15,248 nucleotides of DNA, from IMG/VR virus record IMGVR_UViG_2675903575_000011, one strand, 5' to 3'. Position numbers and translations under genes: made by a program. The DNA is from a virus. Its lineage: Duplodnaviria; Heunggongvirae; Uroviricota; Caudoviricetes. Of the stretch, positions 4,198-10,811 are shown piece after piece. Each line of letters begins with the position of its first letter. Within the stretch, counting starts at the first letter, position 1. The notes under the pieces were generated by a model. That model had not been told where the DNA came from, did not search any database, and saw only the letters and a list, made by a program, of their open reading frames with translations.

Positions 4198-4431
4198 ATG
4201 CGTAATATTGAAACCCTCTCGACTAAAACCGGACCGGATGACGCAGGGCTTAATATTTTACTGACAGAGGCTCGTCTGGAAGAACGCCGGGCAAGGGCTG
4301 AAGCAATGGCAGCTCGCCTTGATAGCCTGGCGTGTCATATCACATCCCGCCAGCTAAACCACGTCGAAGCGGCAGAACTGCTGCGTGTAACTGCTGAAGC
4401 AATCCAGAACGAAGCGCAGGAGATCCACTAA
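4198..4431 (+). CDS. Hypothetical early protein (77 aa, predicted helical/coiled-coil)
   Basis: RBS caggaga at 4184..4190, then ATG at 4198; its stop overlaps the next start (TAATG at 4429..4433). Confidence 0.45.
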   Translation: MRNIETLSTKTGPDDAGLNILLTEARLEERRARAEAMAARLDSLACHITSRQLNHVEAAELLRVTAEAIQNEAQEIH

Positions 4432-4658
4432 TGGCTGATGCAATGGATCTCGTACAGCAGCGCGTTGAAGAAGAACGCCAGCGCCATATTCGTGCTGCCC
4501 GTGCCAAAACACCGGGCGTGTCTCGCGTGCTTTGTATTGAATGTGAAGCGCCAATTCCGCCAGCACGACGCCGCGCCATTCCGGGAGTGCAGCTTTGCAT
4601 TACCTGCCAGGAAATCGTAGAGCTGAAAGGCAAACATTACAACGGAGGTGCTGTATGA
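4431..4658 (+). CDS. TraR/DksA-family C4 zinc-finger protein
   Basis: 75-aa ORF with CxxC-x17-CxxC ([26 protein letters not shown]), the architecture of the DksA/TraR zinc-finger family that is common in P2-like phages. Confidence 0.8.
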
Positions 4659-4957
4659 CAAGGGCAGTGCGTATCCATCAATTAAAAATTGCACCTAAGT
4701 ATTTCAACGTTGTGGTTGCAGGTCAAAAGACGGCTGAACTTCGTAAAGACGATCGTGGCTATAAAGTTGGTGATGTTCTTTCTCTTTGCGAATGGAAGCA
4801 TGGCGTATTTACGGGTAGGGAATGGGCCGCTGTTATCTCTCATGTGCTTCCGGTTAATGACGTCATGGCAGTTTCAGAACAATGGGTGATGCTATCAATT
4901 CGCCCATTAACCCCATTAGAAGCTTTAGGATATGTTATTGCAGGAGGTGCTGTATGA
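4655..4957 (+). CDS. DUF3850/ASCH-like small protein
   Basis: 100-aa ORF starting at ATG 4655 (ATGA overlap with the TraR stop). N-terminus [33 protein letters not shown] matches the conserved DUF3850/ASCH signature as recalled. Confidence 0.6.
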
Positions 4958-5811
4958 GCACCATCCTGAAATGGGCGGGTAATAAAACTACCATTATGTC
5001 CGAACTGAAAAAACATCTTCCTGCTGGCCCGCGACTGGTTGAACCTTTCGCGGGTTCCTGTGCTGTGATGATGGAGACGGATTACCCCAGCTATCTTGTT
5101 GCGGATATTAATCCTGATTTAATCAACCTCTATAAAAAGGTTGCTGCTGATTGTGAATCGTTTATATCTCGCGCCAGAGTTTTATTTGAGATCGCAAACA
5201 GGGAGGTGGCTTATTACAACATAAGGCAGGAGTTTAATTACTCAACTGAAATTACTGATTTCATGAAAGCGGTATATTTCCTGTATCTCAATCGTCACGG
5301 TTACCGTGGTTTATGTCGCTATAACAAGAGCGGGCATTTCAACATTCCCTACGGTAATTATAAAAATCCGTATTTCCCTGAAAAAGAAATTCGCGCATTT
5401 GCAGAAAAGGCCCAGCGAGCAACGTTTATCTGCGCCAGCTTTGATGAAACGCTGGCGATGTTGAAGGCGGGGGATGTGGTGTATTGCGATCCGCCGTATG
5501 ACGGTACGTTTTCCGGCTATCACACTGATGGTTTCACTGAAGATGACCAGTATCACCTGGCATCCGTTCTTGAACATCGGTCATCAGAAGGACATCCGGT
5601 CATTGTTTCTAACAGTGACACATCCCTGATCCGTTCGCTGTATCGCAATTTTACTCACCACTACATCAAGGCAAAACGCAGCATCGGCGTAGCAGCTGGT
5701 GAGAGTAAATCTGCAACAGAAATCATCGCTGTTTCTGGGGCACGCTGCTGGGTGGGATTTGATTCTTCGCGTGGCGTGGATAGTTCTGCCGTGTACGGAG
5801 TGCGTGCATGA
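4954..5811 (+). CDS. dam: DNA adenine methyltransferase (Dam-like, D12-class N6-adenine MTase)
   Basis: Motif I region ([11 protein letters not shown]) and catalytic DPPY motif ([11 protein letters not shown]); N-terminus LKWAGNK typical of Dam. Start ATG 4954 overlaps the upstream stop (ATGA). Confidence 0.9.
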
Positions 5812-8228
5812 GCCATGCTGATATGAACAACTGCAGCGGCTTTAACGAGGCCGCCGCAGCATTCTCATGGAACAGCCCGAAAAAGGCTATTAACCCTTAT
5901 CTGGACCCGGCGGAAGTTGCGCCGGTTTCTGCGCTTTCAAACCTGATCACTCTGTACGCTGCCGATAACGAGCAGGAACAACTGCGCCGCGAGGCACTGA
6001 GTGATCAGGTCTGGGAGCGTTATTTCTTTAATGAATCCCGTGATCCTGTCCAGCGCGAAATGGAGCAGGATAAGCTTATTAGCCGGGCAAAGCTGGCGCA
6101 TGAGCAGCAGCGTTTTAATCCGGACATGGTCATACTGGCGGACGTTAACGCCCAGCCTTCCCATATCAGCAAGCCGCTGATGCAACGTATTGAATACTTC
6201 AGCAGCCTGGGCAGGCCAAAGGCTTATTCCCGCTATTTGCGTGAGACGATTAAGCCATGTCTGGAACGACTGGAGCATGTACGCGACAGTCAGCTATCCA
6301 CTTCTTTTCGCTTTATGGCAAGCCATGAAGGGCTGGACGGCCTGCTGATCTTGCCTGAAATGAGTCAGGATCAGGTGAAACGCCTGTCTACTCTTGTCGC
6401 TGCGCATATGAGTATGTGTCTTGATGCCGCTTGTGGTGATTTGTACGCCACCGATGATGTTAAGCCAGAAGAAATCCGCAAGACATGGGAAAAGGTGGCA
6501 GCAGAAACCCTGCGACTGGATGTCATACCGCCTGCGTTTGAGCAACTCCGCCGGAAAAGAAACCGCCGTAAACCCGTGCCCTATGAACTCATTCCGGGTT
6601 CGCTGGCGCGTATGTTGTGCGCCGATTGGTGGTACCGGAAATTATGGAAGATGCGTTGCGAATGGCGGGAAGAGCAGTTGCGTGCTGTTTGCCTGGTCAG
6701 CAAAAAAGCATCTCCCTATGTCAGCTATGAAGCCGTGATGCATAAACGTGAGCAGCGCCGTAAGTCGCTGGAGTTTTTCCGTTCTCATGAACTGGTGAAC
6801 GAAGACGGCGACACGCTGGACATGGAGGATGTGGTAAACGCCAGCAGCAGCAACCCTGCGCATCGCCGCAATGAGATGATGGCCTGTGTTAAAGGTCTGG
6901 AGCTTATCGCGGAAATGCGCGGTGACTGCGCCGTTTTCTACACCATCACCTGTCCGTCACGTTTCCATTCCACGCTAAATAACGGCAGGCCCAACCCGAC
7001 CTGGACAAATGCGACGGTAAGACAAAGCAGTGATTATCTGGTCGGCATGTTTGCTGCATTTCGTAAGGCGATGCACAAAGCCGGGTTGCGCTGGTATGGC
7101 GTGCGGGTGGCTGAGCCGCATCATGACGGCACAGTTCACTGGCACCTGTTGTGTTTCATGCGCAAAAAAGACCGCCGCGCCATTACTGCATTGTTGCGTA
7201 AGTTTGCTATCCGTGAAGACCGCGAGGAGCTGGGTAATAACACGGGGCCACGCTTTAAGTCTGAGCTGATAAACCCGCGCAAAGGAACGCCGACTAGCTA
7301 CATCGCGAAATACATCAGTAAGAACATTGACGGGCGTGGTCTGGCTGGCGAGATCAGCAAGGAAACGGGTAAATCTCTGCGTGATAACGCTGAATACGTT
7401 AATGCCTGGGCGTCTCTGCATCGTGTTCAGCAATTCCGCTTCTTTGGCATTCCGGGGCGTCAGGCTTACCGTGAACTGCGATTGCTGGCTGGTCAGGCGG
7501 CAAGGCAACAGGGTGACAAAAAAGCAGGTGCGCCGGTACTGGATAACCAGCGCCTTGATGCCATTCTGGCTGCAGCTGATGCTGGTTGTTTTGCCACCTA
7601 CATCATGAAGCAGGGCGGCGTACTGGTTCCCCGTAAATATCACCTCATCAGAACCGCTTATGAAATCAACGAAGAGCCGACCGCCTATGGCGATCACGGC
7701 ATTCGTATTTATGGCATCTGGTCACCCATTGCAGAGGGCAAAATCTGCACTCATGCAGTGAAGTGGAAAATGGTTCGTAAGGCCGTTGACGTTCAGGAGG
7801 CGGCAGCCGACCAGGGCGCTTGCGCCCCTTGGACTCGGACTCGTGGCAATAACTGTCCCCTTGCTGAAAATTTGAACCAACAAGGGAAAGACAAATCAGC
7901 TTATGGGGATACCAGAACGGACATTACCCGCATGGATGACAAGGAGTTGCACGATTACCTGCACAGTATGAGCAAAAAAGAGCGCCGGGAACTGGCTGCA
8001 AGGTTACGCCTGGTGAAACCGAAACGGCGTAAAGACTACAAACAGCGAATTACAGACCATCAGCGACAGCAGCTCGTCTATGAGCTGAAGTCCAGAGGAT
8101 TTGATGGCAGCGAGAAAGAGGTCGGTTTACTCCTTCGCGGCGGCAGTATTCCGTCAGGAGCAGGCCTGCGTATCTTCTATCGGAACCAGCGTTTGCAGGA
8201 AGATGATAAGTGGCGGGATCTGTATTAA
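5808..8228 (+). CDS. A: Rolling-circle replication initiation endonuclease (P2/186 gpA family)
   Basis: 806-aa ORF in the gpA position after the early genes. HUH-type motif ([10 protein letters not shown]) with downstream Tyr-containing region (YIAKYISKN). Start ATG 5808 overlaps the dam stop (ATGA). Confidence 0.9.
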
Positions 8229-9137: not shown

Positions 9138-10811
9138 ATGGAAAAATATCAAGATGAGGAATATGTAGATGATTTAACTGAGCGTGTTTTTCTCATTAAG
9201 CAACAACTGGAAGCGGGAAAACTAAAAATAGCTCATCATCTTGTAGAAGGTTTTATTGAAAGTTTTAAAAGAATAAGGCTGCGACAGGATGGTAAAGTTG
9301 ACCCTTCTACTGTTGATGGCAGAATAAGGGCTATGGGAGCAGCGGTTAATCACTTTTTAGAAAGAGAAGATATAAAAAACAAATACTCTATTCAGGACTT
9401 GCAAAGTTCTTACTTTAATATTCTTTTTAGTAATTTTGGCGAGTTGTTTTATCTGATGAAAAAAACTAATGCAACGCCACATAAAGCATCAAGTTTTTTT
9501 TCTCAACAAGAAGAATATGTTAAGCAAATAGAAGATATTTTTCCTGAGTTATATAATCAGGTAATAGAGTTTTGGCAGGTAACATCCGATATTGGTGTAA
9601 TACATTTGCAGGATGGTTCTCAGTTTAAAGCTAATTTTTCTGGTGACTTATTTCCTGCATTTGATGAGAATGCTGTCTCTATTGCAGGGTTGTATGTTGA
9701 TACTATTTCACTTCCATGTCCTATATTAAGAGTCGGTCGTCTCTATGAAAAGTCAGATAAGGCTGAGTTTACAAGGATACTTCTGAAGCATGTCCTAACA
9801 TGTATGACATATAAAGAAGTAGCGCTTGAAGATATAGAGCCAGCAATAGTATTAATTTTGCCGGATAGAAGAGATTTTGAAACTGAGAGCAAAAAAAATT
9901 TGATGAGTTTTTGTGAGCCTTATGCTCTGACTCATGCGCAATATCTCTATGATCGACGGTTCGAAAGCTACGATGAATTTCGAGATTTTAGTTATTCGAT
10001 GAATGATATTGATGCTGTTCTTAAAAATATTAAGAGAGCAGATAGACTTATTTTTGATACAGCATGGGGGCTAAATCCAAAAACTCAATTAGAAAAACTA
10101 CTATCTGATAAAAAAAGAATATCACGTAATGTTGTTGGTGATCATGCTGGAATGGAGGTTTTCCTTTCCTGCATTGGAAGAATGCCGCAAGCCTATTCAG
10201 CAAAATGTAATGCACAAGAACTTGGTAGTACTCCATATATAAATGCAGACACATCTTGGCTCTATTATACTTGGCTTATTGAGTACGAATCTCTTAATTT
10301 TGATGTCAATGATATTGAACTAAAAAATTTGCATATGGTTCATGCGTTATCTGCTGGTATGCAAGATGGTTTTTCATGGTTAGGAAATGTACCGGTCAAT
10401 AAAATAATTGAGTTGAGACGTAACAAATTGATGGAGGATGTAAGATCCATCTTATCAAATGGTGTTGACTCTTTAATCAATTCTTCGGCAGAGAGCTTTT
10501 CGAGGACAACGCAAAAAGTAATTGATAATGTAGACCGGGCTTTTATTGAACATCAAAGGATTCTTGCAAAAGCCCAAAAAGAGAAATTGAGAATTTACGG
10601 ACTAGATGTCCTACCATGTATCGCAAATGGTGCTATAGCAATTGCTGGAGCGCTGACTGGCAATACTACTTTAACGGCGTTAAGTGCAGGCCTTGGAGTA
10701 ATAGGTATTCCGAGTATTAGTGATATCAAATCTAAATTTAAGCAGAGGCAAGAGAAGCTTGATGCCTATCAACGTTCTGTTACAGGTATACTCTTTAGCC
10801 ATAAATCTTAA
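9138..10811 (+). CDS. Orphan AT-rich 557-aa protein, unknown function; candidate phage-borne defence/exclusion protein (soluble N-terminal region plus C-terminal glycine-rich hydrophobic hairpin)
   Basis: Long uninterrupted ORF with RBS (ggag at 9129..9132) 5 nt before ATG 9138. Composition visibly AT-rich versus flanking phage genes. No Walker A or other motif I can recognise. C-terminal ANGAIAIAGALTG...LSAGLGVIGIPSI is hydrophobic and glycine-zipper-like. Convergent with the portal gene and ended by a hairpin. Confidence 0.7.
   Translation: MEKYQDEEYVDDLTERVFLIKQQLEAGKLKIAHHLVEGFIESFKRIRLRQDGKVDPSTVDGRIRAMGAAVNHFLEREDIKNKYSIQDLQSSYFNILFSNFGELFYLMKKTNATPHKASSFFSQQEEYVKQIEDIFPELYNQVIEFWQVTSDIGVIHLQDGSQFKANFSGDLFPAFDENAVSIAGLYVDTISLPCPILRVGRLYEKSDKAEFTRILLKHVLTCMTYKEVALEDIEPAIVLILPDRRDFETESKKNLMSFCEPYALTHAQYLYDRRFESYDEFRDFSYSMNDIDAVLKNIKRADRLIFDTAWGLNPKTQLEKLLSDKKRISRNVVGDHAGMEVFLSCIGRMPQAYSAKCNAQELGSTPYINADTSWLYYTWLIEYESLNFDVNDIELKNLHMVHALSAGMQDGFSWLGNVPVNKIIELRRNKLMEDVRSILSNGVDSLINSSAESFSRTTQKVIDNVDRAFIEHQRILAKAQKEKLRIYGLDVLPCIANGAIAIAGALTGNTTLTALSAGLGVIGIPSISDIKSKFKQRQEKLDAYQRSVTGILFSHKS

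Follow-up and report, generated by a model that had tools for sequence, protein, structure and literature searches.

A repeated 15-nt stop/start junction borders an optional DUF3850/ASCH gene between TraR and Dam in P2-like prophages

The gene of a small DUF3850/ASCH protein, situated between the TraR and Dam genes of a P2-like prophage of Escherichia coli, is an optional cassette, and the two identical 15-nt junctions at its ends mark to the base the borders at which related phages have or lack it. The picture which, taken as a whole, probably explains these observations best (a probability of about 0.7 is assigned to it) has several parts. The 15-mer would serve as a translational-coupling junction of the operon, with a strong Shine-Dalgarno sequence, a 6-nt spacer and an ATG placed on the upstream TGA, encoding at the same time Gly-Gly-Ala-Val; it is present twice because an optional 284-bp ASCH body with its own 3' junction copy sits between TraR and Dam. 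This junction may be considered a member of a family-wide linker ending every optional gene at the TraR-Dam spot. The Dam-proximal copy would moreover pair, as the 5' arm of a hairpin, with Dam codons 2-5 and so hide the Shine-Dalgarno sequence of Dam; Dam would then be translated only when a ribosome terminates inside the hairpin, and any gene able to adjoin Dam upstream, TraR included, would be forced to end in the linker sequence. Homologous recombination in the flanks would redistribute the presence and absence of the cassette among phages, and the exact 15-bp repeats may additionally permit precise deletion or unequal exchange.

The window, i.e. the whole stretch of 15,248 bp that was analysed, comes from a 186/Fels-2-type Peduoviridae prophage of E. 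coli, of which it represents the early (replication) operon, and the chromosome of E. coli strain 2824 is 100% identical to it; in that strain the ASCH gene already carries the annotation 'DUF3850 domain-containing protein'. On the upstream side, Pfam domains of the integrase (Int_N/Phage_integrase), of a 186-type CI repressor (Phage_CI_repr/CI_C) and of CII (Phage_CP76) were found together with DUF5347, and on the downstream side those of the portal protein (Phage_portal), the large terminase (Terminase_6N/6C) and the scaffold protein (Phage_GPO), in the order Q-P-O. The rolling-circle initiator gpA sits 3' of small orf80/orf82-like genes, as is characteristic of the early operon of Peduoviridae, and identical gene order is annotated in phages RE2010, Cartapus and L-413C. 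The features of the TraR-Dam region are collected in Table 1. The overlaps which, according to an earlier note on this DNA, join these genes into one chain can all be read in the sequence (TAATG at 4429 and ATGA at 4655, 4954 and 5808), the last of them being the place where the gpA start overlaps the Dam stop; its junction, GGAGTGCGTGCATGA, is not of the type found at the TraR-Dam spot. No promoter or terminator consensus stands out in a scan of TraR-ASCH-Dam, at either junction or elsewhere, which fits a single transcript, and Rfam and tRNA scans over the window gave zero matches. Two further reading frames of the window are mentioned here for completeness. An ORF of 557 aa (9138-10811, + strand) between gpA and the portal gene has no Pfam or PHROG match and gave a weak PADLOC match to DitB (E=7e-10); its location, which is that of the old/tin defence hotspot classically known from P2, makes it a candidate anti-phage gene. 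A DinI-like ORF (PF06183; 8508-8813, + strand) lies 3' of gpA, at the position of the 186 Tum antirepressor.

Table 1. Features of the TraR-Dam region, in positions of the window
Feature	Position	Strand	Basis or remark
DUF2732 gene, P2 orf80-like	4198..4431	+	Pfam PF10809, E=3.4e-29
TAATG, TAA of DUF2732 overlapping ATG of TraR	4429-4433	+	sequence
TraR/DksA-type zinc-finger gene, P2 orf82-like	4431..4658	+	Pfam PF01258; PHROG 54
Left junction copy GGAGGTGCTGTATGA, last 15 nt of TraR	4644..4658	+	
DUF3850/ASCH (PUA-like) gene, 100 aa, optional cassette	4655..4957	+	PF12961, PF04266, PHROG 986, PDB 3iuw
Unique cassette body, 284 bp	4659..4942	+	body plus one 15-mer make the 299-bp indel
Predicted mRNA hairpin CAGGAGGUGCU-GUAUG-AGCACC(A)UCCUG	4941..4968	+	MFE and centroid
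Right junction copy GGAGGTGCTGTATGA	4943..4957	+	
D12-class N6-adenine DNA methyltransferase (Dam) gene	4954..5811	+	Pfam PF02086, E=9.6e-77; PADLOC orphan MTase
gpA replication initiator/nickase gene	5808..8228	+	Pfam PF05840, E=1.4e-127

The assignment of the optional gene is based on several profiles. Its product scores 80.5 bits against PF12961 (gathering cut-off 22.9) and 23.4 bits against PF04266, the ASCH family (cut-off 21.2), and it matches PDB entry 3iuw with E=2.6e-9. The annotation of PHROG 986 is 'RNA-binding protein', which at this annotation level gives a hint of a predicted activity. DUF3850 has been described as a domain of the PUA-like superfamily that is enriched in phages (bioRxiv 10.1101/2025.10.10.680097). 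PADLOC returned zero matches for the ASCH protein, and a search of genome contigs with it found only two close relatives and distant DUF3850 genes of Firmicutes and Collinsella, in unrelated contexts.

The pair of junction copies has been confirmed at the exact coordinates at which it had been noticed, at the passage from TraR to ASCH and from ASCH to Dam and with unlike flanks. It is the sole exact direct repeat of at least 15 nt in the window, with a start-to-start spacing of 299; because the bases adjoining the copies differ (c and a before them, c and g after them), the length of the repeat is exactly 15 nt, and no further copy was found in the window when up to two mismatches were allowed. 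The left copy holds the Shine-Dalgarno sequence GGAGG, a 6-nt spacer and the ATG of ASCH (4655) with the overlapping TGA of TraR (4656-4658), and the right one holds the Shine-Dalgarno sequence and the ATG of Dam (4954) with the overlapping TGA of ASCH (4955-4957), so at both places a stop/start overlap is preceded by GGAGG 6 nt before the ATG, inside the coding end of the upstream gene. As expected from the earlier note, both upstream proteins end in the same residues: TraR terminates with ...YNGGAV* and ASCH with ...VIAGGAV*, and the last four codons are common since they fall inside the 15-mer. By chance 0.02 matches to the 15-mer would be expected, and two or more matches were met in 0 of 200 dinucleotide-preserving shuffles, though with some 9 of the 15 positions fixed by function through GGAGG and ATGA the meaningful coincidence lies in the other six bases. 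These six functionally free bases vary at the same junctions in other clades.

Relatives that lack the module and keep one 15-mer, foreseen when the repeat was first noted, do exist and are exactly 299 bp shorter. In a megablast search of positions 4200-6000 against phage records, 45 records matched in two pieces with exactly 299 bp omitted, at 94-98.6% identity; Salmonella phage RE2010 (locus L001), Escherichia phage Cartapus (L002), Fels-2 and dozens of Klebsiella phages are among the relatives with the empty site, and the identity of their flanks is 96-98.6%. RE2010 and Cartapus read ...ggcaaacattacaacGGAGGTGCTGTATGAgcaccatcctg..., i.e. the left flank of the window, one 15-mer and the right flank of the window. 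The empty form prevails also elsewhere: of the 80 IMG/VR loci nearest in their Dam, 71 are empty and 9 are filled, with a disrupted ASCH gene in one, and among 5426 complete E. coli genomes the region is matched in 1239, of which 77 have the ASCH form, about 94% of the matching prophages joining TraR directly to Dam by one 15-mer. Both borders of the indel carry the direct repeat in exact form, and its empty allele retains a single copy. In the close clade of 122 loci both copies are identical in 48 of the 49 filled sites and the same 15-mer occurs once in 72 of the 73 empty ones; altogether 169 of 171 junction copies are identical, versus 16-22% of segregating sites in the flanks.

Single loci of these sets show some peculiarities. 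In L008, L010 and L027 a C before the right copy extends the repeat to 16 nt, the right copy of L029 is GGAGGTACTGTATGA (a minor variant of the close clade), and the empty site L119 has the junction GGAGGTGCTGTTTGA, in which the ATG of Dam is changed to TTG. Some prophages are decaying: L039 and L043 have a frameshift in Dam, and residue ~212 of the Dam of L042 is fused by a deletion to the C-terminus of gpA. In L076/L124 (IMGVR_UViG_643348545_000015) an IS1-family element has inserted into the ASCH gene (~2233-3009 of L076); its ends are GGTAATGCTGCCAACTTACTGAT..., it is accompanied by a 9-bp target duplication, GGAAGCATG, and the insert amounts to 777 bp in total.

In more distant relatives the module is found at the same place and its borders have diverged. 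Among the ASCH relatives in IMG/VR the order TraR-ASCH-Dam is kept down to 59% identity of the ASCH protein; in distant clades both junctions still resemble GGnGGnGCnnnATGA, and the copies differ mutually at 2-7 positions. As an example, the clade at 80% identity, which includes Yersinia phage MLG42, has GGAGGTGCAGTATGA at the left and GGGGGAGCTATATGA at the right border. The ASCH module at the TraR-Dam site is thus an old resident and no recent arrival, and the likeness of its two borders is ancestral. Since distant relatives have the same-site module with diverged junctions, perfect identity of the copies is a trait of the clade of the window, where it would reflect either ancestral retention or later homogenisation. 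Hybrid junctions were sought at empty sites in clades with unlike copies, the 80% clade for example, and none was found; the empty sites nearest to this clade carry GGGGGTGCTGTATGA, which is no simple hybrid of its two junctions. In clades with unlike copies the right junction remains linked to ASCH and shows no conversion to the sequence of the empty sites. Conversion of the right copy to the empty-site sequence by recombination on the Dam side was considered and rejected as a general rule: in L068-L074 the Dam 5' regions are 92-96% identical to those of empty loci and the right junction differs from theirs at 5-6 of 15 positions, from which it follows that the junction moves together with the gene on its upstream side.

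Between TraR and Dam lies a small hotspot of cassettes that have a linker in common, ASCH being one of several genes that can occupy it. The other cargo comprises a 194-aa DEDD (RNase_T) exonuclease (Exo), a second DUF3850 type (45% identical) and a 61-aa ORF, which occur singly or as ordered arrays, and all architectures observed are ordered subsets of TraR-Exo-orf61-ASCH-Dam; related layouts are present in ESSI2_ev040 and Yersinia phage MHG51. Each optional cassette ends in G-G-(A/G/V)-x-stop at a junction of the form GGnGGnGnnnnATGA. This pattern was found at 322 of the 336 ATGA junctions of the hotspot versus 0 of 500 other ATGA overlap sites of the same loci, the control set consisting of spurious in-ORF overlaps together with real junctions; within the window it occurs only at the two 15-mer sites, and P2 proper (L-413C) is without it. 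From the two counts and from the lack of the pattern in L-413C it can be concluded that the linker is specific to the TraR-Dam spot and is no general requirement of overlapping genes. Junctions that are not adjacent to Dam (Exo to orf61, orf61 to ASCH, TraR to ASCH) also bear the motif. No description of a variable spot between TraR and Dam was found in the literature searched.

Particular cassettes can be assigned to loci as follows: Exo to L169, L171, L195, L197, L220, L223 and L239, ASCH-B to L179, L207, L222 and L241, and further alternative cassettes to L172 and to L167/L056/L249. The last of these, L249 (QAKE01000041.1, 'MAG: Bacillota bacterium'), is a 7.4-kb contig with a TraR-Exo-orf61-ASCH-Dam array of enterobacterial type and is probably a binning contaminant. 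Variation is not confined to this interval. A second variable spot, between Dam and gpA, holds 340-1330 nt extra in L009, L010, L055, L186, L061, L066, L068-L072, L178, L179, L237 and L243, and ~220 nt extra are present between DUF2732 and TraR in L063-L065.

ATGA stop/start coupling with the downstream Shine-Dalgarno sequence held in a hairpin is a classical feature of bacterial and phage operons. Such a structure is predicted at the junction of ASCH and Dam, where CAGGAGGUGCU pairs with AGCACC(A)UCCUG, i.e. Dam codons 2-5, the Shine-Dalgarno sequence being buried and the AUG exposed in a 5-nt loop. The 95-nt fold around this junction has -26.1 kcal/mol (z=-2.05), and 7 of 200 shuffles fold as well. 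Folding of the junction between TraR and ASCH predicted no sequestration of the Shine-Dalgarno sequence. The earlier suggestion that translational coupling is identical at both junctions is hence correct as regards the Shine-Dalgarno sequence and the overlap and does not extend to the predicted occluding hairpin, which is confined to the Dam-proximal copy. In 48 distinct Dam-adjacent junctions, whatever the upstream gene, 7-11 of the 11 pairs can be formed, and 84.8% of the hairpin cells are paired versus 37-52% in slid registers; two of the 11 pairs are broken in the clade at 80% identity. A test of covariation showed none beyond the level of shuffles, its score being reached by 115 of 500 of them and the percentage of paired cells by 375 of 500, with both arms of the hairpin being constrained by coding as well.

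The predicted hairpin offers a reasonable but unproven reason why the genes directly upstream of Dam, TraR included, may share this ending. If the rule is right, a cassette inserted upstream of Dam necessarily creates a direct repeat, the upstream neighbour of Dam must end in a sequence pairing with the first codons of Dam, and it would be explained why accessory genes of tightly coupled operons already bring the ribosome-binding site of their neighbour with them. The presence of the motif at junctions away from Dam would, under the same model, be explicable only through history or allele exchange.

How the presence and absence of ASCH moves among phages can be judged from the flanks. In NJ trees of either flank filled and empty loci interleave, with a minimum of 11-13 state changes versus ~29 for random labels. 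None of the 55 left/right haplotype pairs within +/-120 nt is common to both states, and two are at +/-60 nt; one filled and one empty haplotype agree in every base of a 447-nt left flank, and 0.35% is the smallest difference met between right flanks. A filled and an empty locus identical on both flanks were found neither among the 122 IMG/VR loci nor among 1247 E. coli genomes, and therefore no recent event of gain or loss was caught; a search of 5,426 E. coli genomes with a synthetic 'deleted' query gave 97.9% over 2313 nt as the best empty match. The diversity of the ASCH body (pi 1.5%) is lower than that of the flanks (3.2-4.5%), which fits one cassette allele spread onto varied backgrounds. 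In clades with unlike copies filled and empty loci nevertheless have alleles in common, either of TraR (up to 98%) or of Dam (up to 96%). Homology between filled and empty sites begins and ends inside the junction copies. Because the flanks are mosaic and their alleles are common to filled and empty loci, ordinary homologous exchange in the flanks is sufficient for the polymorphism.

A more direct role of the repeat was proposed in the earlier note, namely that recombination between the copies allows precise gain or loss of the module. In its strong form this would mean that ASCH is gained and lost chiefly by recombination or slippage between the 15-bp repeats, 299 bp being removed, or being added by unequal exchange or by re-integration of a circle. 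The composition of the empty site, exactly the left flank, one 15-mer and the right flank, and the interleaving of both states on the flank trees are what such events would leave, as are the architectures, which form ordered subsets of one maximal array in the way that deletions between linker copies would yield; furthermore, in a clade with unlike junctions, in which Dam starts with ATGACC, some 16 filled loci are accompanied by zero derived empty sites. A precedent is given by the PeSL repeats of T4-type phages, which release mini-circles (PMC2839356). Against this stand the lack of any filled/empty pair identical on both flanks in the genomes named above, the chimeric junctions that were sought and not found, and the TraR or Dam alleles that are common to filled and empty loci even where 4-7 positions distinguish the copies; the polymorphism can therefore move between backgrounds without identical repeats. 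RecA-dependent recombination works efficiently only above 15 bp of homology, for which the repeat is short. As the chief route, recombination between the 15-mers is possible and rather doubtful. What can be retained of the proposal is that the repeats mark the exact borders of the indel; no event mediated by the 15-mer was caught, flanking exchange would suffice, and deletion between the copies is plausible but unproven. A wider version, in which the 15-nt junction is a genuine recombination linker and optional cassettes (the exonuclease, orf61, the two DUF3850 types and Dam) are gained, lost and rearranged by recombination between its copies, possibly by way of excised circles of a few hundred bp, is a little more tentative still; if true, it would provide a counterpart of the T4-type PeSL system that is built on a translational signal, and the modular theory of phage evolution would have a testable example of its old 'linker' version.

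It may be argued on the contrary that the identity of the 15-mers is due to functional convergence or plain retention, the six remaining bases matching by ancestry or by chance, and that it has no role in gain and loss of the gene. The Shine-Dalgarno sequence and the overlap dictate most of the repeat, the right junction inferred for the ancestor already agreed with the left one at 11-14 of 15 positions, and the predicted pairing with Dam codons 2-5 further constrains the right copy. Such convergence is nevertheless unlikely, since other ATGA overlaps of the same phages are without the pattern (0/500, and the junction of Dam and gpA is clearly of another type), the six free bases do vary in other clades, and the borders of the indel match the repeat to the base. 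Least credible of all, and indeed highly improbable, is the view that ASCH was inserted by a mobile element or a site-specific recombinase, the pair being the target-site duplication or the att-like site that resulted. A short exact direct repeat around a discrete insert has this appearance, but the 299-bp unit has no transposase, integrase or terminal inverted repeats and its 284-bp body encodes the ASCH protein only, ASCH is found at the same site down to 59% identity with degenerate repeats, and every neighbouring cassette has the repeated sequence as its own coding and regulatory end; the genuine IS1-family insertion of L076, with its 9-bp duplication and inverted ends, looks unlike it. 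A transposon or target-duplication origin was accordingly rejected, no transposase or inverted repeats being present within the duplicated target. The reading given at the outset, i.e. a coupling junction, an optional cassette and a family linker with the predicted hairpin as its reason and with flanking exchange as the means of spread, is preferred to these alternatives.

The TraR-ASCH-Dam polymorphism is ordinary phage gene gain and loss at a gene boundary, and it can be said to be a well-resolved case of a known phenomenon. For the debate on phage mosaicism the locus is an example resolved to the base, with filled and empty alleles, degenerate older pairs and at least three other cassettes sharing the linker. 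The practical value is modest: a small, previously unnamed variable spot in Peduoviridae becomes easier to annotate, and DUF3850 and the DEDD exonuclease are flagged as optional partners of phage Dam methylase.

Comparison with known systems puts these features in context. With classical translational coupling the locus has in common the ATGA overlap, GGAGG 6 nt before the ATG and a predicted stem that buries the Shine-Dalgarno sequence of Dam; it differs from classical hairpin coupling in that the Dam hairpin is without support from covariation, the left copy is not predicted to be sequestered and the coupling itself is a prediction. Accessory hotspots have been named in P2-like phages, i.e. 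old/tin between gpA and the portal gene, Z/fun and tail-CI (bioRxiv 10.1101/2024.10.15.618418). The TraR-Dam spot resembles them in its variable cargo at a fixed position of a conserved Peduoviridae genome, whereas it is unlisted there and its cargo consists of small, translationally chained genes in fixed order and of no independent defence islands. The mosaicism of phages has been attributed either to modular recombination at short conserved sequences or to illegitimate recombination followed by selection (De Paepe et al. 2014, PMC3945230). Like the mosaic boundaries of temperate phages, the TraR-Dam interval has an accessory gene present or absent at a precise gene border, short conserved borders, mosaic flanks and synteny; unlike them, it has as its border, in place of an intergenic linker, a coding 15-nt unit of Shine-Dalgarno sequence and stop/start overlap, at which exchange is inferred from sequences. 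P2-like phages, furthermore, are not known to carry a Rad52-like recombinase.

The closest mechanistic analogue of the TraR-Dam spot may be seen in the PeSLs of T4-type phages, repeated promoter-terminator cassettes that flank optional genes, mediate their shuffling and release mini-circles (PMC2839356, 2010; Comeau et al. 2014, PMC4122927). In both cases the small optional genes of a hyper-variable stretch are each flanked by copies of a short expression signal, and the indels and replacements that distinguish close relatives are bounded by the repeat. PeSLs, in contrast, are intergenic units of promoter and terminator that are far larger than 15 nt, whereas the TraR-Dam repeat is a translational, coding signal inside a single transcript and has no sigma-70 promoter with terminator stem-loop. 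Recombination between PeSL copies and the resulting mini-circles have been demonstrated in T4-type phages, whereas at the TraR-Dam linker such recombination is a possibility.
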